This document shows, piece after piece, positions 40,359 to 63,943 of a DNA stretch of 64,000 bases. How positions within the stretch are numbered: the stretch's first letter is position 1; the number at the start of each line of letters is the position of its first letter. The notes under the pieces are model-generated. The model made no database searches. It saw only the letters and a list, made by a program, of their open reading frames with translations, and had not been told where the DNA came from. Source of the DNA: a virus; IMG/VR virus record IMGVR_UViG_2921643360_000001, positions 1 through 64,000 of that record. One strand, given 5' to 3'. The translations under genes and the position numbers were made by a program.

Positions 40359-40868
40359 ATGAATCAACTGACATTCGAAAATCAGCCGATGACGCTCATC
40401 GAACACGACGGGCGCCTGTGGTTGAAGTCTGCCGATATAGCCAGGGCACTCGGATATGCGCGGACAGACAAACTGACGCGCGTCTATGACCGGCATGAAT
40501 CGGAATTTACCGGTTCGATGACGTGTGTTGTCGAGACCCCCACTTTGGGGTTCCCGAACCTGACGTCAGAAACCCGCATGTTCAGCCTCCGCGGCGCTCA
40601 TTTGCTTGGCATGTTTGCGCGCACGGCGAACGGCATGAAGTTCCGCAAGTGGGTGCTAGACCAACTTGACGCGATTGAGGAGCAGCGCGTCGCCAATCGC
40701 TCGCTGATGTCGGAGTGGTACGACGCGAAAGCCGCGCTCGACAACCAGAACAGGTTTGCAAGTCTGTGCGGTCGCGGTCTGAATGACCACAAACGGCAAA
40801 AGCCGCCGCTTATGCAGCGAATAGCGCTGATCGCAGAAAAGATACAGCCCTCCCTCTCGTTTTCTTAG
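40359..40868 (+). CDS. Bro-N domain protein (antirepressor-like moron)
   Basis: 'LTFENQPMTLIEHDGRLWLKSADIARALGY...FSLRGAHLLGMFARTANGMKFRKWV' matches Bro-N. Confidence 0.75.
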   Translation: MNQLTFENQPMTLIEHDGRLWLKSADIARALGYARTDKLTRVYDRHESEFTGSMTCVVETPTLGFPNLTSETRMFSLRGAHLLGMFARTANGMKFRKWVLDQLDAIEEQRVANRSLMSEWYDAKAALDNQNRFASLCGRGLNDHKRQKPPLMQRIALIAEKIQPSLSFS

Positions 40869-48920: not shown

Positions 48921-49318
48921 CAACGCAATCTCTCAATGACCTGAATCAGTTGTGGTCCCAGGATATCGTCCCGAGCCCGACTGGCGATCTCGGCATAGCA
49001 ACCGACGCGACCCGCAGCCAGCAGCGCGTCATCCGGCGCCTGTTGACAAACCCGCTTGACGCGAACGGACCTCCTGACTATCCGCTCCATCCTACCTACG
49101 GCGCAGGACTAGCCCGGTACGTCGGCCAAAACGTCGACCTCGCCAAGATGCGCACGCTGATCCGCGGGCAGATGCTGCTCGAGGATTCTGTCTCGAAGAA
49201 TCCGCAGCCGCAAGTCACCGTGAAGCTGGTTGATCCGACAACCCTATCCGTCTACATCAGGTACACCGTCGCCGGGTCGGGATCGCCAGCCGTCTTGCAA
49301 TTCAACGTCAATAACTGA
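48917..49318 (+). CDS. Baseplate wedge protein (gp25/GPW/Mu gp46-like)
   Basis: 133 aa, assigned by size and position. Confidence 0.55.
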   Translation: MTTQSLNDLNQLWSQDIVPSPTGDLGIATDATRSQQRVIRRLLTNPLDANGPPDYPLHPTYGAGLARYVGQNVDLAKMRTLIRGQMLLEDSVSKNPQPQVTVKLVDPTTLSVYIRYTVAGSGSPAVLQFNVNN

Positions 49319-49337
49319 CGCATCGACATTCAATCTG

Positions 49338-49359
49338 AGCCACCTTCGGGTGGCTTTTT
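49338..49359 (+). terminator. Rho-independent hairpin within the baseplate operon
   Basis: AGCCACC-ttcg-GGTGGCT followed by TTTTG. Confidence 0.6.
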
Positions 49360-49374
49360 GCATTTCAGGACGCT

Positions 49375-50502
49375 ATGGCATCGATCAACCAATGGAGTTT
49401 GAGCCAGGCGATCGGCAACATGGTCGCGTCTACGCAGGCCAAGGCAAAGGTTCTGCTCGACTTCACCGTTGGCTCGGTCAATCTGGCGATCATTGAGGCC
49501 GTCGCTCAGGTGGTGATCTGGCTTGAGGGCTTAATCCTCACGCTGCTCGCTGTCACGCGAGCCGCAACGTCGAGTGGCTCCGATCTTGACTCGTGGATGG
49601 CGGATTACGGCCTGACGCGGCTTGCGGCTACCTCGTCGACCGGGCAAGTCACCTTCTCACGATTCACGCCGACGTATCAGGCGGTCGTGCCAGTCGGAAC
49701 TGTTGTGCAAACGGCGGACGGGACGCAGCAATTCACCGTCATCGCCGATACGACGCAGACGGCCTACAACGCGACGCTCGGCGGCTATGTCATCGCTGCG
49801 GGCATCTCTGGCGCCGTCGCAACAGTCCAGGCGGTCAACGCCGGCACGCAGACCAACGTCCTCGCCAATACGGTCACGACGCTGACGCAGGCGGTGCAAT
49901 ACGTCGATACGGTCACGAACGCAAATCCGTTCGCTAACGCCGTCGACACCGAGACTGACACTGCGTTTCGGGCGCGGTTCGTCACTTACATCAACTCACT
50001 GTCGAAGGCGACGAAAAGCGCAGTCGGCAATGCGATCCTCGCGGTTCAGCAAGGACTGTCCTATGTGCTGGTGGAAAACCAGACGTATGGCGGTGCCACG
50101 CAAATGGGCTACTTCTACGCCGTCGTCGCACTGAATGGCGCGGTGCCCGGATCGACGCTACTCAATTCGATCGCCAATGCGGTCGACGCGGTTCGGCCAA
50201 TTACCTCGACGTTTGGCGTGTTCGCCGCTGCTACCGTCAACGCGAATATCGCGATGACTATCACGACGTCGTCCGGTTACACACATTCGGCAGTGGTCAC
50301 GCAGGTTCAGACGGCTCTGCAAAGCTACATCGCCACGCTGGGCATCGGTCAGACGTTGGCCTATACCCGCCTCGCGCAAGTCGCGTATGACGCATCACCT
50401 GGCGTGACTGGAGTCAGCGCAATCACGCTCAACGGCGGCACGTCAGATCTCACCGCTACGCAGCAACAACTGATCGTCAGCGGCACGCTGAGCATCACGT
50501 AA
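49375..50502 (+). CDS. Baseplate J-like protein (Mu gp47)
   Basis: 375 aa, assigned by order and size. Confidence 0.6.
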   Translation: MASINQWSLSQAIGNMVASTQAKAKVLLDFTVGSVNLAIIEAVAQVVIWLEGLILTLLAVTRAATSSGSDLDSWMADYGLTRLAATSSTGQVTFSRFTPTYQAVVPVGTVVQTADGTQQFTVIADTTQTAYNATLGGYVIAAGISGAVATVQAVNAGTQTNVLANTVTTLTQAVQYVDTVTNANPFANAVDTETDTAFRARFVTYINSLSKATKSAVGNAILAVQQGLSYVLVENQTYGGATQMGYFYAVVALNGAVPGSTLLNSIANAVDAVRPITSTFGVFAAATVNANIAMTITTSSGYTHSAVVTQVQTALQSYIATLGIGQTLAYTRLAQVAYDASPGVTGVSAITLNGGTSDLTATQQQLIVSGTLSIT

Positions 50503-50511
50503 GGAGGCGCC

Positions 50512-51228
50512 TTGTCGATTGGAGATAGCAACGACGTCTTCGGGCGCCTGAAAGCCGCCCTGCCGCAGCGATGGTTTGGGTCGACTTCGGATTCGATGCC
50601 GGTTGTCGATTCGATCCTGGCAGGACTCGGAACCGGGTTGACGTTCATCTATTCGCTGTATGCCTACGCCAAGGCACAAACAAGACTTTTAACCTGTTCG
50701 GATGGCTTTCTCGATATTTTCGCCAGCGACTTCTTCGGGTCGTCGATACAGCGCAAGGCAAACCAGTCTGACGCCTCATTCAGGGGAGTCATCCAGGCAA
50801 ATCTATTCGCCGAGAAGGCCACACGCAAAGGCGTCGTCAACGTCCTTACGACCATCACCGGGCGAGCGCCAGTCGTATTCGAGCCCAACCGCGTTGGTGA
50901 CGTCGCAATTATGGGCGTGCCAACGGCAGGCGGACAGAACTACATGGGCATTCAGACGAGCATGTATGTCGGGCCTGCGCGCATGGCGTCCACGGCGACA
51001 CCCTACCAGGCTTTCATCATCGCATACCGCCCACAGGCAACGGGCGGATCGGCTGGCGGTGCTTTTACGGATGCGCCCACTCAAGCCGCACTGAATACGC
51101 CCCTCGCCAAGTCATACACCAATTCCCTGTCATTGCTGACGTCAAGCGCAACCGACGCCGACATCTACGCAGCAGTGGACGCTACGCGCCCGGTCGGAAC
51201 CATTCTCTGGGTAAGCATTTCGAACTGA
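50512..51228 (+). CDS. Baseplate/tail protein (Mu gp48 / P2 gpI-like)
   Basis: TTG start, 238 aa, assigned by order. Confidence 0.5.
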   Translation: MSIGDSNDVFGRLKAALPQRWFGSTSDSMPVVDSILAGLGTGLTFIYSLYAYAKAQTRLLTCSDGFLDIFASDFFGSSIQRKANQSDASFRGVIQANLFAEKATRKGVVNVLTTITGRAPVVFEPNRVGDVAIMGVPTAGGQNYMGIQTSMYVGPARMASTATPYQAFIIAYRPQATGGSAGGAFTDAPTQAALNTPLAKSYTNSLSLLTSSATDADIYAAVDATRPVGTILWVSISN

Positions 51229-51261
51229 CAAGCATGTCTAATCTATTTCGGCTAAAATAGC

Positions 51262-51297
51262 GAGACCCGCTCGGTGCGCTAACACCTTGCGGGCCTC
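51262..51297 (+). promoter_or_regulatory. Conserved leader hairpin of cassette 2
   Basis: GAGACCCGC..GGTG-cgctaa-CACC..GCGGGCCTC, which covaries with the copy at 58737..58773. Confidence 0.55.
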
Positions 51298-51328
51298 TAA
51301 CCACCATCTGCTTTCGAGGAGCAAAACG

Positions 51329-51952
51329 ATGGCTACCAAAGATTTTACCTCAGTTGGCGCAGTATTTTCCCGCCTTACCGTGATAGGTTCGCCAGAGAAG
51401 CGCGACCAGCGCTGGTTCGCGCCCTGCCGTTGCGAATGCGGGGCCGAGAAGTTTGTGCAATGCAAGCATCTTGTGTCCGGCGCGACGGTTTCCTGCGGTT
51501 GCGTGAAAAAGGGGCGACCCAACCTGAAGAATCGGACCCATGGCAATTGCGTTGGCGAGAGCAAGGCTTCTCCAACGTATCTAAGCTGGGTTGCTGCCAA
51601 ATCGCGTTGCGATGATGCCAAGGACCGAGACTATGCGAATTACGGCGGTCGGGGCATTCGCATGTGCGATCGCTGGCGCAATGATTTCTCGACGTTTCTC
51701 GCCGACATGGGCGAGCGGCCCGTTGGCATGACGCTAGACCGCTTCCCGGACACGGACGGCCACTACGAGCCGGGCAATTGCCGCTGGGCGACGAACCGCG
51801 AGCAACAGAATAACCGCCGCAATAATGTCCTCATTGAGCACGGCGGCCAGATGAAAACATGCACGCAGGTCGCCCGCGAATATGGAATCCGCCCCAGTGT
51901 GTTCATTGGCCGCATACGACGAGGATGGTCGGTAGAACGCGCCACATCCTAA
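51329..51952 (+). CDS. HNH-like (degenerate HNH_3-type) endonuclease paralog 2
   Basis: 'YANYGGRGIRMCDRW..FSTFLADMGERPVGMTLDRFPDTDGHYEPGNCRWATNREQQNN'. N-terminal Cys cluster CRCECG..CGC. Confidence 0.65.
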   Translation: MATKDFTSVGAVFSRLTVIGSPEKRDQRWFAPCRCECGAEKFVQCKHLVSGATVSCGCVKKGRPNLKNRTHGNCVGESKASPTYLSWVAAKSRCDDAKDRDYANYGGRGIRMCDRWRNDFSTFLADMGERPVGMTLDRFPDTDGHYEPGNCRWATNREQQNNRRNNVLIEHGGQMKTCTQVAREYGIRPSVFIGRIRRGWSVERATS

Positions 51953-51988
51953 CCTGTCGGCAAATAGATAGCTGACGCTAAAACACCA

Positions 51989-52043
51989 AGCCCGCTAAAC
52001 GCGGGCTTTTTCATTTTCTGGCCCGCCATCGTGCGGGCTTTTT
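51989..52043 (+). terminator. Two tandem rho-independent terminators
   Basis: AGCCCGC-taaac-GCGGGCTTTTT at 51989..52011 and GGCCCGC-catcgt-GCGGGCTTTTT at 52020..52043. Confidence 0.8.
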
Positions 52044-52060
52044 GCATTTCTGGAGCCTAA

Positions 52061-53704
52061 ATGGACCGTGTGATTACGTATGTAGGGATGAGCGTATACG
52101 AATGGCTCTTTTCTAAACAAGCGCAAAGCTCGATGGTCGGGCTCTCGAAGCTGTCGGCCGCCATGTTCGGTTCGAATACCGTGGCCAATGGTCTTTCCTG
52201 CGTACCGACCGGCCCCGCTTCGCTGCAAGTCGTCATCAACCCCGGCGAAATCTACTCGTTCGCCAACCTCGAGAACAGCGTCTGCGGAACGCTGCCGACT
52301 GATTCTCACAGCATCATGAAGCAAGGCGTCCTGCTGGATGCTTTTACGACGACTGCTGGTGCGCTTCCCGCGCCAGGCACGGCTGGACAGTCGGTGAACT
52401 ATCTCATCGAAGCCCAGTACGCAGATTCAGACGTCTCGGTCGATCCGACGACGGGCAGCGCGCCTGTCGTGCTTCAGTTCTATAACTCTTCGAATCCCGG
52501 CTCGCCTTGGAGCGGTCCTGGCGGCCTCGGCGGCACGAGCAACACGTTCCGTAAGGGCGTTGTGTCGCTCCAGATCAAGGCAGGTGCCGCGGCAACGACG
52601 GGCAGCCAGACGACGCCCTCACCTGATGCTGGCTGGACTGGGCTGTGGGTCGTGACGGTCGCCAATGGGCAGACACAGATCCTCGCGGGCAACATCACGC
52701 AATACGCAGGCGCGCCAATCCTGCCGTCGTCGATTCTTTCGTCGATCCAAAGCGGAAATATGTCGTATGCGGTCGCAACCGGGTCGGCTAACGCTCACAC
52801 GATCGCCTTGACGCCGGCTCTCACGTCGCGCGTCGACGGCATGATGATCCGCTACAAGGCTCCTGCCGCCAACACGACAGCCGTGACGCTGAACGATGGC
52901 GTCGGAACGGCCAACGTTCTCGGCGCGAACCACGCGGCACTCCAGGGCGGCGAATACATCACCAACGGTGACGCCATTGTCGTCTGGAATAGCTCGATCA
53001 GCGGCGGTTCGTACATCCTCATCGAATGCACTGGCGGCGCCCTCCAAATCCCCCCCGCCACTCAGAGCCAGCATGCTGTGCAGTTGGGGCAGGTGCAGCA
53101 GAACTATGCGTGGAATGGCGGGTTCCAGGCCGTTAGCGCAACCGGGAACTTTACAGTTCCGGCCGGCGTTTATAGATTGCGTTACCGCGTATGGGGTGGC
53201 GGTGGCGGCTCAGGCGGATGTGGGTCGACTGGCCAGACAGCAGGGGGCGCTGGCGGTGGCGGCTACTCCGAGGGAGTCGCTAGCGTAACTCCTGGTCAAA
53301 CTGTGTCATGCACTATTGGAGCAGCAGGTACCGCCGGGGGGGCAGGTGGCTCCGGTGGTACAGGCGGCACTACGTCGTTCACTGCAGGCGCTTTGACGGT
53401 TTCCGCTACCGGCGGGTCTGGAAGTTCAAACGGCATAGGGTCTGGCGGGAATGGAGCAGCCGGTGGCACCGGATCTGGTGGGCAAAACAACCTGACTGGT
53501 GCCGGCGGCTGCTCGGGTTCGGGCTCGACGGGCGGCCCTGGGGGCATGGGTGGTTCGGCCCCCCAAGGCGGTGGCGGTGGCGGTGGCGCAACTGGGACCG
53601 CCCAGTCCGGGCAGACGCCTGGCGGCGGCGCAGGAGGGCCTGGTGCGGCTGGAGCCAACCCGGGCGCCATTGGCGGAGCTGGTCGCATTGTTTTTGAATG
53701 GTGA
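52061..53704 (+). CDS. Tail fibre protein with C-terminal glycine-rich domain
   Basis: 547 aa after the baseplate. C-terminal 'WGGGGGSGGCGSTGQTAGGAGGGGYSEG...GAGRIVFEW'. Confidence 0.7.
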   Translation: MDRVITYVGMSVYEWLFSKQAQSSMVGLSKLSAAMFGSNTVANGLSCVPTGPASLQVVINPGEIYSFANLENSVCGTLPTDSHSIMKQGVLLDAFTTTAGALPAPGTAGQSVNYLIEAQYADSDVSVDPTTGSAPVVLQFYNSSNPGSPWSGPGGLGGTSNTFRKGVVSLQIKAGAAATTGSQTTPSPDAGWTGLWVVTVANGQTQILAGNITQYAGAPILPSSILSSIQSGNMSYAVATGSANAHTIALTPALTSRVDGMMIRYKAPAANTTAVTLNDGVGTANVLGANHAALQGGEYITNGDAIVVWNSSISGGSYILIECTGGALQIPPATQSQHAVQLGQVQQNYAWNGGFQAVSATGNFTVPAGVYRLRYRVWGGGGGSGGCGSTGQTAGGAGGGGYSEGVASVTPGQTVSCTIGAAGTAGGAGGSGGTGGTTSFTAGALTVSATGGSGSSNGIGSGGNGAAGGTGSGGQNNLTGAGGCSGSGSTGGPGGMGGSAPQGGGGGGGATGTAQSGQTPGGGAGGPGAAGANPGAIGGAGRIVFEW

Positions 53705-53708
53705 GCTT

Positions 53709-53891
53709 ATGGTCCAAAACTACGCATTAGTCGCAAGCGGCGTCGTCGCTAATACCATCATTTGGGATGGCGACACTGAAAACTGGCAGCCCCCCGATGG
53801 TCAAGTGGTCGTGTTGATACCCAGTGACGCGGGGCCGGTGTCGATTGGCTGGAAATGCGACGGCTCGGCATTCACGTTACCTGAATTGTAA
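53709..53891 (+). CDS. 60-aa tail-fibre-adjacent protein
   Basis: Reads MVQNYALVASGVVANTIIWDGDTENWQPPDGQVVVLIP..., a pattern I recall recurring next to phage fibre genes. Confidence 0.5.
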   Translation: MVQNYALVASGVVANTIIWDGDTENWQPPDGQVVVLIPSDAGPVSIGWKCDGSAFTLPEL

Positions 53892-53928: not shown

Positions 53929-55242
53929 ATGCTTATTTCGAAAATCGGCGGGGCGGTAAATAAGGTAGCGATGTCGGTCAAGCATCGCGTCGTCGGGCGG
54001 GCGATCTCTACGCTAGAGAAACCTCATCAGGCAGTTCCCGATGTCGCGATTCCCGATGTTCCCGAGACGGATGAGTCTGTTCTCGCTCGATCCGAGTCTA
54101 TTATTTCCCGGGCAATTTCTGCTGGCCGATCTGGCAAGCTGACCGTTGTTCCTGAGATGATCTCCGTCGCGGCCACGGAAAACTGCAATCTTAAGTGTGT
54201 TATGTGCCCAGGTCATGCGGGTATGAGCGGTCCGAAACTCTCAGTCAATGAGGCCGAAATGCTATTCGCCTCGCTCGCTGTTGAAGGCCCGCATTTTGGG
54301 TCGCCGAAGATCCTAGACATGACATCTGGTGAGCCCACGCTCAACCCCGACCTAGGGCCAATTTACGGCCGATTCAAAGAACTTTTCCCCGATTCGAAGA
54401 TTTCGATGATAAGCAACGGGACGATCCCCGTTCGCGGTCGAACCCGTGAAGCATTCGAACATGCTGACCGCATCGGTCTTTCGATGGACGGCGCGACGCA
54501 GGAGACGTATGAGCGGATCCGTCAAGGGTCGATATGGAAGAACGTCATTCGCAATGTGATGGACGTTGCTGAAATCAAGAAGTTGGGTGAGAACTGCGAG
54601 ACGTTGCAGATCATGATGGTTGTTATGGACCAGAATATCCATGAACTACCTGAAATGATCCGCCTCGCACATTCCCTTGGAATTCCGCAAGTGTTCGCGC
54701 AGGTTTCTGAGATTCGTACTACCCCCTTCAATATCGCAGGGCAGAACGTTTCGCTTACTCTCTCAAAGGAAAAACTCGCCCCTATAGTACACGAGGCGAA
54801 GCAGGAGGCTCAGCGACTCGGCTTGGATTTGACTCTTACGGCGCATCTGGAAAATTCACTCGTTCCGGATGAGCCAAAGCAACCAGCGACTGCTCAGATG
54901 ACACATGACGAGCGCGCGTTGAGTGTCGCGATTCGAACGTGTAATGTGCCGTGGATGCATGCACCGCGCATTTCGCAAAATCACGATGGGATCTACCCCA
55001 CAACGGTTTGCTGCCATATGCCGAATGTCCATGGCGCTGGCAATTTGGCACGCCGGGAGGAGTTCCGCGGGAAGTCGATCAACGAAATCTTCAACTCGCC
55101 ATACTATTGGGAAATTCGGGCTGGGTTGATGGATGGATCGCTTGCCAATGATGCATGCAAGGGTTGCCAGTATCACCAGATGACGCAGTGGACGGCCACC
55201 CAATTGCGCGAATTGGAAGAGGCCGTCGATGCATCAGTTTGA
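53929..55242 (+). CDS. Radical SAM enzyme with SPASM/twitch-like Cys-rich C-terminus
   Basis: 'ENCNLKCVMCPG' (CxxxCxxC), 'SGEPTLNP' and 'SNGT'. C-terminal Cys pattern CNVPW..VCCH..ACKGC. Visibly lower GC than the flanks. Confidence 0.8.
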   Translation: MLISKIGGAVNKVAMSVKHRVVGRAISTLEKPHQAVPDVAIPDVPETDESVLARSESIISRAISAGRSGKLTVVPEMISVAATENCNLKCVMCPGHAGMSGPKLSVNEAEMLFASLAVEGPHFGSPKILDMTSGEPTLNPDLGPIYGRFKELFPDSKISMISNGTIPVRGRTREAFEHADRIGLSMDGATQETYERIRQGSIWKNVIRNVMDVAEIKKLGENCETLQIMMVVMDQNIHELPEMIRLAHSLGIPQVFAQVSEIRTTPFNIAGQNVSLTLSKEKLAPIVHEAKQEAQRLGLDLTLTAHLENSLVPDEPKQPATAQMTHDERALSVAIRTCNVPWMHAPRISQNHDGIYPTTVCCHMPNVHGAGNLARREEFRGKSINEIFNSPYYWEIRAGLMDGSLANDACKGCQYHQMTQWTATQLRELEEAVDASV

Positions 55243-55605
55243 TTGATTCAGGGACGGGGATAACGACGGCGCCTCGCCACATTCGTTTTCGGCTAGTCCC
55301 TGCTCGTCTACAGGTCGGTCAGGAAAGCTCATAGGCGCTCGCATTCCGATCAGTGCCGTGAGTTTTCCGAAGAAGGACCGCTTGTGCGTCTCCAGTCCGA
55401 ACTCTCGTGCGCTTCGCTGGAAGTTGTCGACCTCCCCGGAGCAGAAGCAGGCGACATACCGGTAGGTCTCTCGTCGTCGATTCAGAAGGGCGAAATACGC
55501 ATAGACAGGCTGATCGAATTTCTTGATCTCTCCCACCTGTAAGCGCTCAACAAATGCTTTGTCCTGCTCCGGCATGTGCCGCGTAGTCAAAAGTATCGTC
55601 TGCAC
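55234..55605 (-). CDS. 123-aa hypothetical protein (GTG start, strong SD GGAGG)
   Basis: Converges on, and overlaps by 9 nt, the radical-SAM 3' end. No motif recognised. Confidence 0.55.
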   Translation of the reverse strand: MQTILLTTRHMPEQDKAFVERLQVGEIKKFDQPVYAYFALLNRRRETYRYVACFCSGEVDNFQRSAREFGLETHKRSFFGKLTALIGMRAPMSFPDRPVDEQGLAENECGEAPSLSPSLNQSN

Positions 55606-55706
55606 TTCGATCCTCCGTCTCTGGGTTATTTAGGATCGCGCTGAATGTTCAGGGGATTGCGTTGTTTTTCAATTCGTTACCCCTGTAACGACCGCCGATA
55701 ATACAC

Positions 55707-56504
55707 CTAAAATTTTATTTTCAGCTCCAGCGCATCGGCATCATTCCACAGTGGCGGAATTTCGCGCTTGTTGCTGTTGATGCTCATGAAGTAATGCCTG
55801 TAGCTCAAGGTGAGGCGACCGTTTCCTACGGACAGCCCAGCAACGGGCGCGACGGACCAGTAGGCATCGGAAACGCTGATGTCCTGTGCCGTCTGCGTTG
55901 GCCACGCCTTCCACCCGGCGACGTGCTCGGACCACGAGTCACGATGCACATAGGCGCCGACTTCTGCGCCGACGCGGACGCCGTAGACCCAGTAGTACGG
56001 CTCAAGCGTCAGCGCGACACCTTGTGATCGTCCTTCGCCCGTGAAATACGCCTGCGGTACGTCAACCTTACGCGTGTAAGAGTGCGACGATGGGTCGTAA
56101 TTCGCGTCATTCGGCGTGCATGAGCAGTCGGCTGCAGCGCGACCAAGATTGACGTATTCGGCGTGCCAGTCGACGCCCCATTTGCCGCGAGTGATGAGCG
56201 GACCAGTGAAGCCAGCAGAGAAAGCCGGCGGCTTGCTCGTCAGCTTTGAGCCGCCCGGAATGCCCTCCTGGTACCAGCGACCATCGGTCGTGGTGTACTT
56301 GGCCGCGCCAATGCCCAATTCGACCTGAACGTAATCGTTGATGTAATCAGCATGCGCCGACGCAGCGGCACAGCCCAAACTCATCGCAACAGCCGCCGCA
56401 CGCCACCGCGACCCAACGCGGCGATTCGTGCGTGAAGCCGTAACCTGTTGGCGCGGAACTCGGCGACCGCGTGAAGCCTGAACCACCCGATTTTGCGTGT
56501 GCAT
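55707..56504 (-). CDS. Outer-membrane beta-barrel protein (Lom/Ail-like moron)
   Basis: Signal peptide '..AAVAMSLGCAAASAHA|DY', alternating aromatic beta-strands and a C-terminal '...LELKIKF'. Confidence 0.7.
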   Translation of the reverse strand: MHTQNRVVQASRGRRVPRQQVTASRTNRRVGSRWRAAAVAMSLGCAAASAHADYINDYVQVELGIGAAKYTTTDGRWYQEGIPGGSKLTSKPPAFSAGFTGPLITRGKWGVDWHAEYVNLGRAAADCSCTPNDANYDPSSHSYTRKVDVPQAYFTGEGRSQGVALTLEPYYWVYGVRVGAEVGAYVHRDSWSEHVAGWKAWPTQTAQDISVSDAYWSVAPVAGLSVGNGRLTLSYRHYFMSINSNKREIPPLWNDADALELKIKF

Positions 56505-56506
56505 TT

Positions 56507-57187
56507 TTATTCTCCGAGCGCAACTGTCAAATTAGCTGCGTGATTTGCTGTCCAGACGGTTGCGAAAGCTTGCAGCGATGCTTTGCGCTCGTCATAGTCC
56601 TTGCCCAAGCCGATCATTACGGCGTTGCGCTCTTCCAGTCTTGCCAGAAGATCGAGCGCAGTCGTTGACAGGCTGTCGCGCTCAAGAGATTGAAACTTGC
56701 CTGATGCGGCCCAGTTGACCAGCCGCGCCTCATTGGAAAAATGATGCGGAGCGCATGTCTTGCCGATGGCCTCGCGGCTCAATTGCACAATCTGCGACAT
56801 GACCTTGTATGACGCTGCGGCTTCGTGGCGAAGACGTTTCTGGTCAAAGTGCGGATGCTGGCGTGTGATGAGCGCACGAATTTGCCGATCGCACCAGATA
56901 GCGAAGCGCACGTCCAGCCATCGGGCGAATCCAACCGCAAGATCGGGATGAAGCCAAGTTCCGCCGCTCTTGCCGCGCAAGGTGCGAATCCAATTACCAG
57001 ATTCTCCGGTATTTAAGGATTCATCCAAGGCAGCGATGTATTCCTGTGTGGCAGGAAGGGCGAGCCAGTCATTCGGACGCTTGCCGAATTGCGAGGCGAT
57101 GGCTGTCGCATTGAACCAACCTTCGTCAGTAAATGAGACGGCCACGCCTTGGTAGTCTGCGACGATGATTTGCTGTTTGGGGGCCAT
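56507..57187 (-). CDS. KilA-N domain protein
   Basis: 'VSFTDEGWFNATAIASQFGKRPNDWLALPATQEYI...GTWLHPDLAVGFARWLDVRFAIWCD' matches KilA-N. Confidence 0.75.
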   Translation of the reverse strand: MAPKQQIIVADYQGVAVSFTDEGWFNATAIASQFGKRPNDWLALPATQEYIAALDESLNTGESGNWIRTLRGKSGGTWLHPDLAVGFARWLDVRFAIWCDRQIRALITRQHPHFDQKRLRHEAAASYKVMSQIVQLSREAIGKTCAPHHFSNEARLVNWAASGKFQSLERDSLSTTALDLLARLEERNAVMIGLGKDYDERKASLQAFATVWTANHAANLTVALGE

Positions 57188-57212
57188 TACCGCGCTCCCA
57201 TGCTGAATGATG

Positions 57213-57493
57213 CTACTGCGTGTCTTCTCCAGCGGCCTCCGACATGTCCATCGTGGCGCCGACTTTGCGCATTTCGTCGATCACGGCTTCGATATCCCGC
57301 TGCTTGAGCACGAGTTTCGCCATAGCGAAAAACAGCATTTGCGCGCTGATCTTCCTCGGCTCCTTCCCGCCCGTATATTTCCTGAATTGCTTGTCGTCCG
57401 ATACACCGAACAACTCGGCCATCTGGGAGCCGGTATATCCAAGCCGCGCCTTGAGTCGCGCTAGGTCTTCTGGGGTCGGTGCTTCGTAGCGCA
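57213..57493 (-). CDS. XRE-like HTH regulator
   Basis: 'GYTGSQMAELFGVSDDKQFRKYTGG'. ATG at 57493 is preferred over the TTG at 57509. Confidence 0.6.
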
Positions 57494-57595
57494 TTGAGGA
57501 ATCGTCCAAGGCTGCGCGAAAAATCGCGAAATGTTCTTCTCATGATTCTTCCTTTCGGAGTTGTCGGGTTGCCGGATGGCCGCCCTGTGATTGGA

Positions 57596-57625
57596 AGTAT
57601 CAGCCCCGAAGGGGGCATTTGTCAA
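57596..57625 (-). promoter_or_regulatory. Sigma70-like promoter (TTGACA-18-GATACT) for the HTH/KilA-N/OMP operon
   Basis: Read from the minus strand. The spacer contains the hairpin GCCCC-ttc-GGGGC. Confidence 0.5.
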
Positions 57626-58014: not shown

Positions 58015-58629
58015 ATGCAACTCACAGCACAGATTGTCGCGTCAGGGTGTGGCTCAGCGCTTCTTCGGGCGGCGCAGTGGGTCGCCCCGCTCCAATCCGC
58101 CTGCGACCGCTACCACATCGACACGCCTCTGCGCGTCGCGGCCTTCCTGTCGCAGATCGGCGTCGAGTCTGCCCGCCTCACCGCCCTCGTCGAAAACCTG
58201 AATTACTCGGCAGAGGGTTTGCTCGCAACCTTCCCGAAGTACTTCAACGCAGTGCAGGCGGCGCAGTACGAGCGACAGCCGCAGCGCATCGCGAATCACG
58301 TCTACGCGAATCGGTACGGCAATGGTGACGAGGCGAGCGGAGATGGATTTCGATTTCGCGGCAGAGCGTTGCTCCAGATAACCTTTAGAGACAACTATGC
58401 CTCATGCGGTAAGGCGATTGCGCTGCCTCTCGACTCACATCCTGAGTTGCTTGAGCAACCATGCAATGCGGCGCTCGCGGCTGGCTGGTATTGGGACTCG
58501 CGCAACCTTAACCCGCTGGCCGATGCCGGTCGATTCGAGGGCATCACGCGCGCTATCAACGGCGGGCTCGCAGCGTATTCCGAACGCCTCGCTCTCTATA
58601 GCGCTGCAAAGAAGTCACTCGGTATCTGA
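58015..58629 (+). CDS. Endolysin, glycoside hydrolase family 19 (chitinase-like)
   Basis: 'FLSQIGVESARL...NLNYSAEGL...YANRYGNGDEASGDGFRFRGRALLQITFRDNY...INGG' matches GH19 endolysins. Confidence 0.85.
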   Translation: MQLTAQIVASGCGSALLRAAQWVAPLQSACDRYHIDTPLRVAAFLSQIGVESARLTALVENLNYSAEGLLATFPKYFNAVQAAQYERQPQRIANHVYANRYGNGDEASGDGFRFRGRALLQITFRDNYASCGKAIALPLDSHPELLEQPCNAALAAGWYWDSRNLNPLADAGRFEGITRAINGGLAAYSERLALYSAAKKSLGI

Positions 58630-58803: not shown

Positions 58804-59472
58804 ATGGCTATCCGCAAGTATATCGCATCTGGCGAAATCCTCCATGGTTGGGTCTACGTCCGAGAGGGCGTGGATCGCGGCAGGACTCGGCACATCTTCG
58901 CAATGTGCCCCTCATGCAAAAACGAAGTCGAAGTAAATGCGACTGAGGTGCGGACTGGAAAAAAGAAAATGTGCCGTCCATGTGCCGACAAATTCAACGG
59001 GGCGAGATGCCTGGTTCATGCAGAAAAGTGGGCGACGCACAGGATGTCAGGTTCGACAACTTACGAATCATGGCGGTCTATGATGAAGCGTTGCTACTTA
59101 GAAAGTGCAACGTTCTATCAATACTACGGCGGAAAAGGGGTCAAAGTTTGCGACCGTTGGCGGGATTCGTTCGCCAATTTCTTTGCTGATATGGGAGAGC
59201 GCCCTGAAGGCATGACCTTGGACAGATACCCCGACAAGAACGGTGACTACGCGCCGGGTAACTGCAGATGGGCAACGCCAACGGAACAGATTCGCAACAG
59301 AAATACCACGGTGTATATTGAGTTCCGGGGGTTGCGCAAAACGATGAAGGAATGGGCGGATGAAATTGGTGTCGCCTACAAGACATTACGCGCAAGGATA
59401 GTTGACCAAGGATGGCCAATAGACCGCGCACTTACTACGCCGCTGCGGATCCACAGAAAGCACGTCCCATAA
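58804..59472 (+). CDS. HNH-like (degenerate HNH_3-type) endonuclease paralog 3
   Basis: 'YQYYGGKGVKVCDRW..FANFFADMGERPEGMTLDRYPDKNGDYAPGNCRWATPTEQIRN'. N-terminal CPSC..CRPC. Confidence 0.65.
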   Translation: MAIRKYIASGEILHGWVYVREGVDRGRTRHIFAMCPSCKNEVEVNATEVRTGKKKMCRPCADKFNGARCLVHAEKWATHRMSGSTTYESWRSMMKRCYLESATFYQYYGGKGVKVCDRWRDSFANFFADMGERPEGMTLDRYPDKNGDYAPGNCRWATPTEQIRNRNTTVYIEFRGLRKTMKEWADEIGVAYKTLRARIVDQGWPIDRALTTPLRIHRKHVP

Positions 59473-59497
59473 ATCAAAGAAGTCGCTGCGACTGACA

Positions 59498-59526
59498 AGC
59501 CCGCCATTGTGCGGGCTTTTTGTTTT
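59498..59526 (+). terminator. Rho-independent terminator of cassette 3
   Basis: AGCCCGC-cattgt-GCGGGCT followed by TTTTGTTTT. Confidence 0.8.
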
Positions 59527-59546
59527 CCATCCATTGAAGATTACGC

Positions 59547-59993
59547 ATGCCAACACCTCTACTCCGTGACGCGGGGTCAAGCGGCAGTGTGACCGGCGCG
59601 AATGCTATTGCCAACAACGCCTATTCCAATAGCGCGGACAAGTTGCGGATTCAGTTAAGCGCGATCGGAACAAACTATCTGCTGGCTGATTTCCGGCTTA
59701 CTTCTGCCACATTCGCCAGCGCTCCGACGACTGGCGTTATCCAGCTTGCAAAAGTCCCGCGCGACTTCAGCGGAAACGCAGGGCCGACGCCCTCTGCTTC
59801 GATGCTGGCGACGCAGATCTATACGATGGGACCCGCCCCCTCAACCGGGAACGCCTCAACAAGCTGGGTCATGTCCGTCGATTCGGTCCCGCTCGATGCT
59901 GATGCGGACTACTGGGTCTTCAACAACGCAACCGGCGTTTCTCTCAACTCGGGATGGGTGCTTACCTATGTCCCGTGGTCACCTGGAACGTAA
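59547..59993 (+). CDS. Hypothetical structural-type protein
   Basis: 148 aa, S/T/A/N-rich beta-type sequence. First gene of the distal cluster. Confidence 0.5.
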   Translation: MPTPLLRDAGSSGSVTGANAIANNAYSNSADKLRIQLSAIGTNYLLADFRLTSATFASAPTTGVIQLAKVPRDFSGNAGPTPSASMLATQIYTMGPAPSTGNASTSWVMSVDSVPLDADADYWVFNNATGVSLNSGWVLTYVPWSPGT

Positions 59994-59999
59994 TCACAC

Positions 60000-60215
60000 A
60001 TGGCACTCATCAACGTTGCGCTTCCCGGCGCATCTGAAATCACGCAGATGGACGACGCTGACCTTCACAAGCTCGAAGGCAGTTACGAGAATGAAAACGA
60101 GATCGTTGGCTGGGTCCAATACCACCTCAAGACAACCGGCGACCTCGTGCATCGCAGCGTGAATATGCACCTGAAGACGGTTCCGGCAGAACTCGCGCAA
60201 GCACTCATTGGATAA
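60000..60215 (+). CDS. Hypothetical small protein
   Basis: 71-aa ORF. Confidence 0.45.
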   Translation: MALINVALPGASEITQMDDADLHKLEGSYENENEIVGWVQYHLKTTGDLVHRSVNMHLKTVPAELAQALIG

Positions 60216-60227
60216 CGGAGATTACAA

Positions 60228-60677
60228 ATGGCGAACACGCAAGGGCTCGCAAATTCTTTCAAAAATGAGGTTCTTCTCGGCCTCCACCAGTTCGGTTCGG
60301 CGACGCTCACATCGCGCGGCAGTCTGACGACTCCGACGACAGACACGTTCAAGGCGGCTCTGTATCTGGCGTCCGGCTCACTCGGCGCAGGGACGACCGC
60401 CTATAGCGCGACCAGCGAAGTATCAGGCACGAACTACTCGGCGGGCGGCGTCACGGTGACGAATGCCAACGCACCGAGCGGCGGCCAGTGGACGCCCTCC
60501 GCCTCCATCGTCTACACGAACGTTACGCTCTCGACATCTTTCGATACGGTCCTGATCTACAACTCGACGCAGGGCAATCGCGCGGTCGGAACTTTTGTAT
60601 TCGGAGCGCAGACGATCACCGCCGGCACCCTCACGCTAACCATGCCCGGTTCGGGCGGACTCATCGCGATTAACTAA
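60228..60677 (+). CDS. Hypothetical structural-type protein
   Basis: 149 aa, T/S/G-rich beta-type sequence with a good SD. Confidence 0.5.
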   Translation: MANTQGLANSFKNEVLLGLHQFGSATLTSRGSLTTPTTDTFKAALYLASGSLGAGTTAYSATSEVSGTNYSAGGVTVTNANAPSGGQWTPSASIVYTNVTLSTSFDTVLIYNSTQGNRAVGTFVFGAQTITAGTLTLTMPGSGGLIAIN

Positions 60678-60682
60678 CTGCC

Positions 60683-62419
60683 ATGGGCGCGCCAGACCTC
60701 TCAAACTGGATCTGGCCGGACGCGGATCTACAGCGCCAGCCTCAGGGCGTGGTCACGGTCAACCCTCAGGTTTTCCCCAGCGCGGTACGCTGCTTTGTCG
60801 GTGGCCGCGATGTGTTGACGAACATCAACCTGGCGCTCCCGCTCATCCAGACGCCAGCCGGAACGGGATATACAAACACCAGCAACTCGGCCGCCGCCAA
60901 GCAACTGTCGAGCACTCTAGCCACTTCGTCCGGCGCGGGCGCAGGTGATTTCACGATCATCTGTGTACACAATCTGGCGGCAAGCGGGTCTCAGAATTCG
61001 GTCGCCTGGGCGATTGACGCTAACAAGGCCGCCCCTGGCTTCTATGTCCAGATGAACGCCGACACGTCGGGTGCCTTGGCATCTGGCGATATGACGTTTG
61101 GGGACTTTAATAACGCGGGGATCGCGCTGACCGGGGCGGTTGACGGCAAAAGTCACGCAGTCATTTTCACGCGGCGCGGCACGACGCTCTATGCCTTCAT
61201 GGATGGGGCGCTGAAGTCTACGCTCGCCTCCTACACTTATGCCCTGCCCGCGTCGGGCAATGCGGAGTGGGTGGGAGGGTCAGGGTGGGCTAACACCGGC
61301 GTCGTCGGGGGTGGCGTCCCGCTTATCGCGGTGTCCAACCGGGGGTTGACGATTGCCGAGGGCGTGGCGCTCTCTGCTAACCCCTGGCAGATTTTCAAGC
61401 CGGCGACGATGGCGCTGTATATGCCAGCGGCTGCGGGCGGCGTGACGGTTGGGCTGTCTCAGGTAGCGGGTGCGGGTAGTGTCGGTGCTGTCGGCATCGC
61501 AACGGGGCTCTCGGCAACGGGCGTATCTGCGACTGGTGCGACGGGTTCTGCCGGATATGGCGAAGGTTATGCGATCACTGGTGCGGCGGCCACTGGCAGC
61601 ACGGGTATTGCTACGCCCGCCTCGTCTCCAGTTCTGGCAGGTGCCAGTGCGACAGGCTCGATGGGCACCGCTGCGCCTTCGATCACCGCAGCGCTGACCG
61701 GCGTATCGGGTGCATCGTCTGTCGGTAGCGTAACCCCCGGCACTTCGGCGGCCCTGACGCAAGTCGCCGCAACGGGATCGACGGGCTCGGTAAGTGAGGG
61801 TATTTCACTGGCCCTGTCTGGCGTCGCGGGAACGGGATATGTCGGCACCGTCTCATCTGGCGGCAACATCACGCAGGCGCTGTCCGGGGCCCCTGCTACT
61901 GGCGCTGTCGGCTCCGTATCCCCTTCCCTGTCGCTGGTTAGTTCTGGCGTCTCGGCAACGGGCAGCACGGGCTCTCTCGCTCCGACTCGCGCGCTATCCG
62001 GCGTATCTGGAGCCAGCACGACTGGCGCCGTCACGCAGTCGATATCGCCTACCCTCGTCGGCTCAAGCGCAGCCGGGTCAACAGGCGCTATCTCTGCGGG
62101 CGCGGACAAGAATGCAGCTCTGACTGGTGCTGCGGCAACGTCTTCCGTTGGCAGTGTTGGCACGAACGTCTCGATCGGTCTGGCTGGCATTTCCGCGACG
62201 GCATCGACCGGCGTTCTCGCGTCGAGCCTGACTTATGGACTGGTTGGAAATGCGTCGGCAACAAGCGTTGGATCGATTCTGGCCGTCACTCCAAAATCCA
62301 TCGCGGCCCCGCCTGTCACGTTCCCGATCTACCGAGAGCGGCGCGTGTTCAGCATTCCATCTGAAAGTCGCATATCGCCCGTTCCTGCCGAGAGGCGAAT
62401 CATCAAAGTCGCAGCCTAG
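60683..62419 (+). CDS. LamG/concanavalin-A-like lectin domain protein with about 13 tandem ~20-aa G/S/T/A repeats
   Basis: 'DGKSHAVIFTRRGTTLYAFMDGAL' is a LamG-type core. The C-terminal half consists of 'ALSGVSATGSTGSV...' units. Confidence 0.6.
   Translation: MGAPDLSNWIWPDADLQRQPQGVVTVNPQVFPSAVRCFVGGRDVLTNINLALPLIQTPAGTGYTNTSNSAAAKQLSSTLATSSGAGAGDFTIICVHNLAASGSQNSVAWAIDANKAAPGFYVQMNADTSGALASGDMTFGDFNNAGIALTGAVDGKSHAVIFTRRGTTLYAFMDGALKSTLASYTYALPASGNAEWVGGSGWANTGVVGGGVPLIAVSNRGLTIAEGVALSANPWQIFKPATMALYMPAAAGGVTVGLSQVAGAGSVGAVGIATGLSATGVSATGATGSAGYGEGYAITGAAATGSTGIATPASSPVLAGASATGSMGTAAPSITAALTGVSGASSVGSVTPGTSAALTQVAATGSTGSVSEGISLALSGVAGTGYVGTVSSGGNITQALSGAPATGAVGSVSPSLSLVSSGVSATGSTGSLAPTRALSGVSGASTTGAVTQSISPTLVGSSAAGSTGAISAGADKNAALTGAAATSSVGSVGTNVSIGLAGISATASTGVLASSLTYGLVGNASATSVGSILAVTPKSIAAPPVTFPIYRERRVFSIPSESRISPVPAERRIIKVAA
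61430..62290 (+). repeat. Imperfect tandem coding repeats (~57-60 bp unit)
   Basis: Seen in the translation as xLxGVxATGSxGSVxxxxSx repeated about 13 times. Confidence 0.6.
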
Positions 62420-62442
62420 CCCCGCAAGGGGCTTTTTCTTTT
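62418..62442 (+). terminator. Rho-independent terminator
   Basis: AGCCCC-gcaa-GGGGCT followed by TTTTCTTTT. Confidence 0.75.
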
Positions 62443-62454
62443 GGAGCGCGCCAT

Positions 62455-62781
62455 ATGGCGACACCAAACCTTACGAAAGACCCGGGTGCAACGCTCGATT
62501 TCGGATTCGATTTGAGCCCGAACGTTACGCCGCTCTATGCGCCTTGGCTGGCTGCCGGCGAGCAAGTTGTATCGCTCAACGTCACCGCCGACCCAGGCAT
62601 CACGATCGGTTCTTCGAGCATTGTGCCGAACGCGGGCGGCATTGCTGGCGCGCTGGTTACCGCATGGATTAGCGGAGGTACTGCAGGGAATTCCTACGCA
62701 GTGCATTTCGCCTTCACCACGAACTCAACCCCTCCCCGCACCGACGTTCGCTCGATGCAGATCGTTGTTCAAAGTAGGTAG
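62455..62781 (+). CDS. Phage fibre-tail adaptor-like protein
   Basis: 'TKDPGATLDFGFDLSP...WISGGTAGNSYAVHFAFTT...RTDVRSMQIVV' fits the 'KDP..LDY..DW...GG..G..Y.V...T..GR.D.RS' family as I remember it. Confidence 0.5.
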   Translation: MATPNLTKDPGATLDFGFDLSPNVTPLYAPWLAAGEQVVSLNVTADPGITIGSSSIVPNAGGIAGALVTAWISGGTAGNSYAVHFAFTTNSTPPRTDVRSMQIVVQSR

Positions 62782-62783
62782 CC

Positions 62784-63290
62784 ATGTCCGTTCAAGATAC
62801 CCACGAGCTGAAAGACACACTCGTAGCAGATTACTTCGTGCCGGGTCATGAGGCGCGCACCACCACCGCCCTTTTCGAGCGCACGCGAAAGATCCTCATC
62901 GAACGCGAAGGTGGCCGCTGCTTCGTCACCAACATGACCGCTGAAGAACTCGGCGCGCCGTTGCAGGCTCATCACCATCCTGTCGAGCGCTGCTTTGCGA
63001 CCGCATGGGACTGGCCGCGCTTTGCCGATGACTGCAAGGCTGGAAAGTGGGGGCCGCACGCGCAGGAATTCGATTGGGATTCGTTCCTTTCCGCAAAGCC
63101 GTTTGACCCTTACCGCTTTGTCGATGACATGACCGTCAACGGCATGTTGCTCGGCGCCGGGCCGCACATCGGGAAAGACCAAGGTTTGCACAGGTTGCCG
63201 TTTCCTGTGTGGTTGTTCACCAAATACGCCGTTGAGGGCTATCGCTTCAGCCCAACCGAAACCATCCATCACGACCCGGAACATCTATGA
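62784..63290 (+). CDS. Hypothetical protein with 'C...HHHP' HNH-like half-motif
   Basis: 168 aa. 'GGRCFVTN...LQAHHHPVER'. Weak call. Confidence 0.45.
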   Translation: MSVQDTHELKDTLVADYFVPGHEARTTTALFERTRKILIEREGGRCFVTNMTAEELGAPLQAHHHPVERCFATAWDWPRFADDCKAGKWGPHAQEFDWDSFLSAKPFDPYRFVDDMTVNGMLLGAGPHIGKDQGLHRLPFPVWLFTKYAVEGYRFSPTETIHHDPEHL

Positions 63291-63496
63291 ATACCTCACC
63301 CGTCCAAACCGGCGCGGTCGGCGCCGTCACTGCAGCGGTTTATACGCTGGTTTCCGCGTTCGCCAAGCACTACAACATCGACATCACTCCTGATGCACAG
63401 ATGTCGGTCGCTGTCGGAATAGTTGCCTCGGCGCACTGGATTGGCCAGCAATTCGCCGCCCGTTCCGCCGCCAAGGCTCCCGCCACTCCGCAATGA
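63287..63496 (+). CDS. Small two-TM membrane protein (holin-like?)
   Basis: Hydrophobic segments 'GAVGAVTAAVYTLVSAF' and 'MSVAVGIVASAHWIG'. ATGA-coupled to the lipoprotein gene. Confidence 0.45.
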   Translation: MNTSPVQTGAVGAVTAAVYTLVSAFAKHYNIDITPDAQMSVAVGIVASAHWIGQQFAARSAAKAPATPQ

Positions 63497-63609
63497 AGCG
63501 CCTCACCCTAATCGCCGCCCTGCTTCTCTCTGGCTGCGTCTCTGTCTGCACTGGTAGTGCTGGCTCAATGAACTGTCGCGTTGTGCCGGTTCATTTCCAG
63601 TTCGACTGA
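63493..63609 (+). CDS. 38-aa lipoprotein
   Basis: My translation is MKRLTLIAALLLSGCVSVCTGSAGSMNCRVVPVHFQFD, with the lipobox LLSGC. Confidence 0.5.
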   Translation: MKRLTLIAALLLSGCVSVCTGSAGSMNCRVVPVHFQFD

Positions 63610-63616
63610 CTCCCGA

Positions 63617-63943
63617 ATGTTCTCACCCATGAAACTACTCGTCGCACTTGTGCTGGCCGGGTTGCTGACGGCGTGCGCGGGCAGCGCGACATTTTCGGTG
63701 CGCCCCTTCCATGACGACACGACCGGCAAGATGGAGTGCTGCGAGTTTCGCGCGATGGACTGGCGCGACATCGGCGCACTGACCATCGATGCATCCAAGT
63801 CGGCTGACGGCTCGATCGTCGTTCACTACTCCGCCAATGCAATCGGCGCTACGGCTCCGATCAATGCGCAAGGCGCCGTCATCTCCAACGTAGCAACAGC
63901 GGCCGGCAATACGGCTGCTGCCATCGTCAAACTCGCCCCCTAG
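63617..63943 (+). CDS. Lipoprotein (alternative start at 63629)
   Basis: 'MKLLVALVLAGLLTAC' is a signal peptide with a lipobox. Confidence 0.6.
   Translation: MFSPMKLLVALVLAGLLTACAGSATFSVRPFHDDTTGKMECCEFRAMDWRDIGALTIDASKSADGSIVVHYSANAIGATAPINAQGAVISNVATAAGNTAAAIVKLAP

Follow-up and report, generated by a model that had tools for sequence, protein, structure and literature searches.

Five adjacent genes in a prophage of Paraburkholderia steynii, a host identified from the protein names in the source record, probably encode an accessory appendage of the virion. The genes occupy positions 59547-62781 of the window, by which we mean the whole 64,000-nucleotide stretch analysed here (IMG/VR record IMGVR_UViG_2921643360_000001; contig MWML01000013.1 of assembly GCA_004334975.1, in which contig position equals window position + 1). 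We consider it rather probable that their products form an appendage of the collar-rope-bead type, of the kind found in phages GP4 and Bas63, and that the set is a variant built partly from unannotated families. A 108-amino-acid (aa) protein of the Gp77 family would supply the collar, the repeats of a 578-aa protein the rope, and a 149-aa protein the beads; proteins of 71 and 148 aa complete the set. The order of genes for a bead-sized protein, a repeat protein and a Gp77-family protein parallels the order in GP4, and this likeness supports the assignment.

All five open reading frames (ORFs) are intact, lie on the plus strand, which is also the strand of the late genes, and are separated by 6 to 36 bp. 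The original prediction, made from the sequence alone, proposed a second, distal cluster of fibre-like genes downstream of an endolysin gene and an HNH gene; it located the five genes correctly, and the ORFs are confirmed. It also described the 148- and 149-aa proteins as rich in serine and threonine and the 71-aa protein as more mixed. The combined content of these two residues agrees with this description, being 23% in the 148-aa protein, 29% in the 149-aa protein and 10% in the 71-aa protein, as well as 24% in the 578-aa and 20% in the 108-aa protein, with a mean of 16% in ten structural genes from the same phage. A blastn search with 59400-63400 against a phage collection and a tblastn search with the 578-aa protein against 50,697 phage records returned nothing, and searches of PDB sequences with the 148-, 149- and 578-aa proteins gave no significant matches.

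Two terminator-like hairpins on the plus strand accompany the genes. One (59497-59518), with an 8-bp stem containing 6 G-C pairs and a following T run, lies between the HNH gene and the cluster. The other (62418-62433), AGCCCC-GCAA-GGGGCT followed by a T run, lies between the genes for the 578- and 108-aa proteins and corresponds to the terminator that the original prediction placed there. The gap upstream of the cluster (59473-59546) has no match to a sigma-70-like promoter; the nearest such matches are inside the HNH gene (59291-59319) and inside the gene for the 71-aa protein (60064-60092).

The five proteins and their relatives

The 108-aa protein (62455-62781, plus strand) is an immunoglobulin (Ig)-like protein of the Gp77 family, and a candidate collar or fibre adaptor. 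It matches Pfam family PF23148, "Podophage GP4 fiber-tail adaptor protein gp77", over residues 8-103 (E=1.6e-16; 61.0 bits versus a cut-off of 27), in agreement with the resemblance to fibre-tail adaptors that had been noticed earlier, and it also matches PDB entry 8jou_D (E=1.3e-3). Aligned with GP4 gp77, gp22 of mycobacteriophage LilDestine and the proteins of viral contigs L006 and L019, it shares the motifs LDY-x-FD, W-L/M and SGGTAG-x-SY. It is a stand-alone protein that fits the size class of Gp77 proteins (about 90-110 aa), with two short insertions in the window copy. In contig L009, residues 320-590 of a 720-aa protein consist of repeats and residues 623-706 form a Gp77-like domain, which falls below threshold (E=6e-4 with two hidden Markov models (HMMs); 20.8 Pfam bits versus a cut-off of 27). 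Its sequence hints at a fusion of rope and collar, as in Bas63.

The 578-aa protein (60683-62419, plus strand) begins with a LamG-like (concanavalin-A-like) domain covering residues 1 to about 245 (60683-61417). The match of this domain to PF13385 (Laminin_G_3) has an E-value of 0.0056 and 17.3 bits, below the cut-off of 27.6. Full-length homologues (P0226, P0268, P0293 and the protein of contig L114) exceed the cut-off; in P0293 the stretch that does so aligns to residues ~160-235 of the window protein. The domain is conserved in contigs L006, L012 and L013, and it might serve as a distal glycan-binding head. The original prediction called this protein a LamG-lectin/tandem-repeat protein; the tandem repeats are present, at the protein level, whereas the LamG assignment falls short of threshold in the direct match and passes in homologues.

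The putative rope follows at residues 258-538 (61454-62296, plus strand), and comprises 14 repeats of 18-22 aa recognized by autocorrelation and repeat register. The autocorrelation has a sharp peak at a period of 20, and the consensus is approximately L-S/T-G-V-x-A-T-G-S-x-G-S-V plus 5-7 residues. Tandem Repeats Finder detects no repeat at the DNA level in this gene, the repeats having diverged in DNA. The repeat region is common to 184 proteins with varied lectin or enzyme heads, including LamG_3, PASTA, F5/8 type C, PKD-like and other domains. The repeats presumably act as the string that threads the beads.

At residues 550-576 (62330-62410, plus strand) the sequence of the 578-aa protein contains three tandem 9-residue motifs, YRERRVFSI, PSESRISPV and PAERRIIKV. 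The L006 orthologue has YPESRKYAV, SAESRTKTV and AAESRTIKV in the same place, and other rope proteins also end in similar short tandem motifs. These three motifs may anchor the rope on three collar subunits. Structure 8jou of GP4 contains 3 gp77 chains and 10 gp80 chains, and by analogy with this 3:10 ratio the 14 repeats could accommodate up to ~14 beads per rope and the three motifs would engage three collar subunits per rope.

The putative bead protein of 149 aa (60228-60677, plus strand) belongs to the phrog_644 family. Its AlphaFold 2 model (predicted local distance difference test score 70) has a strand at residues 4-7 and a helix at 12-22, followed by a beta-sandwich. At the level of fold only, this model may resemble Fiber I of GP4, the Sf14 neck protein and the arm of the Bxb1 wing. 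A Foldseek search with the model found nothing, as did a search of PDB sequences with a profile of the family. The protein has no match to PF23140 (Gp80) at E<=0.1, and five relatives have none at E<=10. As sequence methods give no link to Gp80, we regard the 149-aa protein as Fiber I-like in its working and not as a member of PF23140. The family is large, with >8000 clusters at 90% identity, typically of 156 aa and ~70% identical to the query, and 1536 clusters at 50% identity (E<=1e-3).

Directly upstream of phrog_644 genes there is a constant small partner, which in the window is the 71-aa protein (60000-60215, plus strand), with homologues in L006, L007 and L009. Members of its family adjoin the phrog_644 gene in 74 of 80 viral contigs. 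The protein has no match in Pfam or PHROG, and could be an assembly factor or a partner of the bead.

The first gene of the cluster (59547-59993, plus strand) encodes a 148-aa protein with a jelly roll of the TNF/C1q/BclA type. It has the ten strands expected of this fold, and its matches to TNF, C1q and carbohydrate-binding modules (CBMs) outscore those to cement proteins. A possible role is that of a trimeric knob or cap, lectin-like, on the fibre. With 66 proteins the family is small, and a scan of genome contigs for it matched only an Aquabacterium metagenome-assembled genome. The NCBI gene BZM27_06160 starts at an internal ATG that would give 134 aa. The family alignment retains M1, R7 and an MxTPILR N-terminus, so the ORF that begins at 59547 is likely to represent the true product. 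A paralogous relationship between the 148- and 149-aa proteins was considered and rejected (BLASTP E=7.5; hhalign).

Gene neighbourhoods and sites of insertion

We surveyed 100 viral contigs, 80 of which carry the 149-aa family and 20 the 148-aa family. Among phrog_644 loci with enough flanking sequence, an ORF with 20-residue periodicity starts downstream within 250 bp in 48 of 67 cases and within 3 kb in 58 of 67. The background rate is 3 in 212, calculated from ORFs of at least 150 aa in the window and in Ralstonia phage Raharianne. The 148-aa family is followed immediately by a 20-residue-repeat ORF in all 20 contigs, and the HMM of the LamG-like N-domain recognizes 14 of these ORFs. A Gp80-like gene is upstream of the 148-aa family in 12 of 15 contigs, and a Gp77-like gene comes directly after the rope gene in 8 of 19. 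These counts define a canonical module in which Gp80 is followed, with other genes possible between, by the 148-aa family, a LamG-headed rope and Gp77, which corresponds to the GP4 set with the addition of a jelly-roll protein and a lectin-like head.

In its usual context a phrog_644 member of ~163 aa belongs to a trio, together with a paralogue of ~138 aa and a small protein of ~63 aa. The trio occurs in 68 of the 80 contigs, and in L020-L099 the common arrangement is this trio followed by a 20-residue-repeat protein (for example, L028 6895-9398 and L050 7387-9741). The presence of two paralogous beads suggests that beads can be heterodimeric; the window has a single bead gene. In the window and in L006, whose proteins are 149, 69, 151, 579 and 95 aa long, the small protein and the phrog_644 protein are encoded as a pair between the 148-aa family and rope genes. 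No Gp80-like gene is present anywhere in the window or in L006, and the nucleotide identity of the two sequences peaks, at 76%, over exactly this pair. Judged from its sequence, the cluster is a chimera of two sub-modules, in which the pair stands in place of the usual Gp80 bead. Such an exchange argues that phrog_644 and Gp80 proteins do the same job.

None of the five families is present in Raharianne, and the same families are found in podovirus, siphovirus and myovirus contexts. In line with the original prediction, the genes look like mosaic cargo that is shared with other phage types. In HK97-like and P2-like myoviruses the module can have capsid or small-terminase genes on one side and genes for head completion or the connector on the other (L012, L013, L105). 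Other copies follow tail-terminator or sheath genes (L106, L114-117), or are at the end of the tail genes and before the lysis genes (L018 and LilDestine), or come after the lysis genes and beside a class-3 lipase gene (L019, L102). The variety of these sites and the recurrence of the post-lysis position (L006, L019, L102) fit an accessory cassette that was inserted independently, and not a block displaced from the baseplate operon. The proposal that insertion of moron and lysis genes had displaced the cluster is at odds with this recurrence and with the copies at head-connector or neck-tail junctions. The cassette is mobile between very different phages.

In contigs L009/L011 (8285-14768) and L010, from phages with lambda-type terminases, a bead module resides between replication and terminase genes, which is unusual for structural genes. 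The module encodes a 501-aa protein with a glycoside hydrolase family 5 (GH5) cellulase domain, a 68-aa protein, a 156-aa bead, proteins of 180 and 263 aa, and the 720-aa rope.

A cultured marine virus, Roseobacter phage CRP-207, encodes a homologue of the phrog_644 bead immediately behind the coat gene and, within the tail module, a Gp77-like protein (E=1.8e-11). The two proteins, gp49 (L001 14650-14967) and gp55 (L001 8001-8438), are both annotated as hypothetical. CRP-207 could serve as an experimental model for such an appendage.

Architecture of the appendage and competing explanations

In the arrangement that we propose, the 108-aa Gp77-like Ig domain would build a ring on the virion, and the head-to-tail connector is the most likely structure for it to surround. 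Through the three strand-like 9-residue motifs in its C-terminal tail, the 578-aa protein would lock onto about three collar subunits. The 14 repeats of ~20 residues would then serve as a string around which 149-aa beads wrap, with each repeat completing the incomplete beta-sandwich of one bead and the 71-aa protein perhaps assisting in the wrapping. The LamG-like domain would be at the distal tip and, together with the 148-aa jelly-roll protein, could provide a glycan-binding surface. The likely function is reversible adhesion to surface polysaccharide or stabilization of the neck. The LamG-like head and the TNF/C1q-like partner are most simply read as parts of an adhesion fibre that binds glycans, is dispensable and is most likely mounted on the neck through a Gp77-like ring. 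We infer the attachment site, the stoichiometry and glycan binding, and by analogy with Bxb1 wings the appendage is probably dispensable for infection.

This arrangement has precedents. The complex of the Ralstonia podophage GP4 (PDB 8jou) was reported by Zheng et al. (J Mol Biol 2023) and is taken here as described in PMC12609058 and PMC11445570. Its head-to-tail adaptor is surrounded by 15 copies of a 93-aa Ig-like adaptor, which bear 5-fold fibres (PMC11445570). In Fiber I of GP4, dimers are attached along a separate "rope" protein, and this protein is interlocked with the collar; Fiber I has been speculated to bind lipopolysaccharide (LPS) (PMC12609058). In the GP4 genome, gp80 (140 aa), which is Fiber I, is followed in turn by gp79 (325 aa), gp78 (568 aa), gp77 (93 aa) and then the tail-fibre genes. 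As in the window, the gene for a Gp77-family Ig-like adaptor comes after a long 20-residue-periodic gene, in a set of neighbouring genes that share one orientation, and the 3-fold C-terminal motif of the window protein fits three adaptor subunits per fibre. GP4 gp79 has glycine and hydrophobic periodicities of 10/20 and 20/42 residues, about 11 repeats by our count, and a comparable "PIERQLFVEDDSRTLVV" stretch after them. GP4 gp78, whose position and size are like those of the 578-aa protein, was considered as its counterpart and set aside, as the two have no similarity and gp79 is the better rope candidate. Differences are also apparent. GP4 is a podovirus, but the window phage is a myovirus and its cassette follows the lysis genes. 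The window bead is a phrog_644 protein that has a 71-aa partner and lacks the PF23140 match, and the window rope has an N-terminal LamG-like domain and ~14 repeats, whereas GP4 binds 10 beads. The TNF-like 148-aa protein is extra.

The collar-whisker complex of Bas63, which has an Ig-like collar at the neck, is homologous by structure to that of GP4 (PMC12609058). Its whisker monomer is built from a helix at the N-terminus, a sheet of small size and a sandwich that is incomplete; dimers are threaded "like beads on a string", and the rope completes their sandwiches (PMC12609058). Whiskers contact the capsid, tail terminator and sheath, and may stabilize the neck or bind LPS transiently (PMC12609058). 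Bas63 and Sf14 (Felixounavirus; PDB 9c39; PMC12609058) resemble the window phage in being myoviruses and, by architecture, in combining an Ig-like collar, a rope and whisker dimers; the whisker layout of an N-terminal helix and an incomplete sandwich appears to match the 149-aa model. However, in Bas63 the collar protein itself supplies the rope, as a short extension at its N-terminus that holds two dimers only, while rope and collar are separate genes in the window and the rope is long with a lectin-like head.

Two further systems are accessory fibres of other construction. The tail wings of mycobacteriophage Bxb1 (gp30 base, gp31 arm, gp33 brush; PDB 9d93; PMC12646305) are like the cassette in being accessory, dispensable and absent from close relatives, and they display an enzymatic or binding domain. 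When the wing is removed, growth suffers modestly and plaques lose their halo (PMC12646305). Mycobacteriophages are also rich in matches to the Gp80 family, to which they contribute 397 of 476 records. Unlike the proposed appendage, these wings are joined to a siphovirus tail tip through the tail spike, and their base protein is a carboxypeptidase. We know of no Gp77 collar or 20-residue-repeat rope in Bxb1 wings. T4 fibritin (wac), also from a myovirus, is an accessory fibre that is attached at the neck, and infection as such does not depend on it. It differs in being a trimeric alpha-helical coiled coil from one gene, without Ig collar, rope or beads, and we found no relation in sequence or fold between fibritin and the window proteins.

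Several points weigh against the appendage that we favour. Homology of the 149-aa family to Gp80 is not demonstrable by sequence: 70 diverse members have no Pfam match (E<=1), and hhalign comparisons of the family with Gp80 give P=0.014-0.086, which is weak or non-significant. The roles given to the 148- and 71-aa proteins are guesses, and incorporation into virions is a prediction from the genes. That gp79 is the GP4 rope is itself suggested by its sequence, and neither gp79 nor gp78 is among the PDB sequences. Finally, the hairpin upstream of the cluster and the position near an att site are also typical of morons.

This last point belongs to a different reading, in which the genes are lysogenic-conversion cargo or an inert remnant, with a cellular role exerted from the prophage or with no function. 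The post-lysis location ~3 kb from the putative attR is a classic moron position, one terminator-like hairpin precedes the cluster and another interrupts it ahead of the last gene, HNH genes are on both flanks and the cluster is absent from Raharianne. We nevertheless judge this reading very improbable. The ORFs are intact and tightly packed, the gap upstream lacks a promoter match, and none of the five proteins has a signal-peptide-like N-terminus. Also, the 108-aa protein is homologous to gp77 of GP4, a solved virion component (for the 149-aa protein the likeness is at fold level only), and the families are strongly conserved, with >1500 clusters in viral contigs, and embedded in structural operons.

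Other readings place the proteins elsewhere in the virion. Side fibres at the baseplate or tail tip that set host range, in other words a second receptor-binding apparatus of the tail, would suit the LamG-like and TNF-like folds, which are typical of carbohydrate binders. They would also suit the cluster L mycobacteriophages, in which Gp77- and Gp80-like genes belong to the group of "minor tail protein" genes that closes the tail operon. This is unlikely, however, since none of the five proteins matches a tail-fibre, tailspike, baseplate-attachment or fibre-chaperone family in Pfam or PHROG, the baseplate operon (46181-53891) has its own fibre gene, and several copies of the cassette are between capsid and connector genes. 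Moreover, the Gp77 ring of GP4 surrounds the head-to-tail adaptor, the Ig-like collar of Bas63 is likewise at the neck, and the related Bxb1 wing can be lost at the cost of a modest growth defect. The original prediction of a second fibre apparatus thus stands insofar as the genes look like an accessory fibre or decoration set apart from the baseplate fibres, but a classical tail-fibre identity is not supported. Its estimate that the cluster is 6-9 kb from the tail-fibre genes was correct, as the cluster starts 5.7 kb and ends 8.9 kb past the last ORF of the fibre region, which ends at 53891. A capsid decoration set, in which a 148-aa jelly-roll trimer would be a cement or decoration protein and the other proteins head fibres, is a still less convincing explanation and in our view quite improbable. 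The cassette does follow the capsid gene in L012, L013 and L105, and Gp80 homologues are often annotated as "head protein". Up-facing Bas63 whiskers even touch capsid decoration proteins (PMC12609058). However, the jelly roll scores better against TNF, C1q and CBM proteins than against cement proteins, in 20 of 20 loci its gene goes with the rope gene and not with capsid genes, the structure that has been solved shows Gp77 as an adaptor of the neck or tail, and Raharianne, which has a related structural module, is without the 148-aa protein.

Beyond the collar-rope-bead appendage of this one prophage, a more general proposal is possible, although we hold it tentatively and with some doubt. The ~20-residue repeats might be a general docking code, by which lectin or enzyme heads fused to ropes are displayed through beads of at least two interchangeable families (Gp80, and phrog_644 with its 63-71-aa partner) on a Gp77-type ring, and the kit would move among myoviruses, siphoviruses and podoviruses through several insertion sites. 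If so, this would be among the commonest unrecognized host-adhesion modules of environmental phages. If the collar-rope-bead reading is correct, the collar-whisker architecture, known from few solved virions, would be a widespread exchangeable cassette. The unannotated phrog_644 family and its small partner would gain a structural role, and repeat proteins of low complexity, rich in G/S/A/T and headed by lectin or enzyme domains, would become readable as ropes in their hundreds. For annotation, genes for a Gp77-like protein, a 20-residue-repeat protein and a ~150-aa bead would then indicate an accessory fibre, and not a primary receptor-binding protein to be used in predicting host range. The system would also be a naturally occurring scaffold on which phage particles could be made to display binding or enzymatic domains.

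The prophage and its flanking genes

The virus is a myovirus, as PHROG searches identify terminase, portal, scaffold, major head protein, sheath (40906-42432), tape measure and baseplate genes (46181-50502), as well as a fibre gene (52061-53704). Its nearest isolated relatives are the Ralstonia phages Raharianne, Hyacinthe and Albius, with ~50% amino-acid identity in structural proteins. A tyrosine integrase gene is on the minus strand at 481-1554. A 17-bp direct repeat, CTTTTATTTTTGCGGAA, occurs at 458-474 and again at 15112-15128 of L004 (window-equivalent ~65794-65810), where it just precedes bacterial genes for a carbamoyltransferase and xanthine-dehydrogenase-type proteins. The two copies are candidates for attL and attR, and the right end of the prophage has no tRNA gene. 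The element is an integrated prophage of ~65.3 kb; the integrase and the flanking repeats together define an element of about 65 kb that encloses the cluster. The cluster lies ~3 kb from the right end. The original prediction had named membership in an adjacent separate element as an outcome that would count against it, but the genes are between the integrase and the 17-bp repeat ~3 kb past the cluster. We rejected a separate adjacent element or a second prophage, because the flanking genes have counterparts in Raharianne and the candidate att repeats enclose the cluster.

The late genes on either side of the cassette are arranged in the order endolysin, HNH gene, cassette, HNH-like gene, 69-aa protein, lipoprotein, 142-aa protein and lipase-like protein. 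Raharianne has the order endolysin, HNH (gp55), gp56, gp57 and lipase. The endolysin gene (58015-58629) is upstream of the cluster. The HNH endonuclease gene on the left flank (58804-59472, plus strand; phrog_3377, E=4e-52) is context and not part of the appendage, and is a possible mobility factor. On the right flank, a gene at 62784-63290 (plus strand; phrog_8048, E=4.8e-24) encodes a 168-aa HNH-like protein with 57% identity to a 158-aa protein of L006 and 24% (E=1e-5) to the region of Raharianne gp55. The homologue in L006 is upstream of the cassette, whereas in the window the gene is downstream.

The arm past the cassette (63287-63943 of the window and 13271-14415 of L004) encodes a 69-aa hydrophobic protein, two lipoprotein-like proteins with lipoboxes LTAC and LAGC, and a protein of 238 aa in which a lipase-type motif, GHSLAG, is present. 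This post-lysis arm is conserved, being common to Raharianne gp56-gp58, L006 and L019 (Lipase_3), and the 142-aa protein is a homologue of Raharianne gp57 with 40% identity.

Between the tail and lysis genes there is a moron-like block (53929-57618). A radical-SAM gene on the plus strand (53929-55242) comes after the tail-fibre genes, and a minus-strand island (55234-57618) contains genes for 123- and 265-aa proteins, a KilA-N gene (56507-57187) and a small gene that by eye looks helix-turn-helix-like. At the N-terminus of the 265-aa product, basic residues give way to hydrophobic ones, and its sequence is rich in aromatic residues, which suggests an outer-membrane protein. An Ant-like anti-repressor gene (40359-40868) is inserted between the neck and sheath genes. 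Together with the two HNH genes that flank the cassette and the change of side of the HNH-like gene in L006, this insertion suggests that small mobile genes have moved in and out of the late region a great deal.

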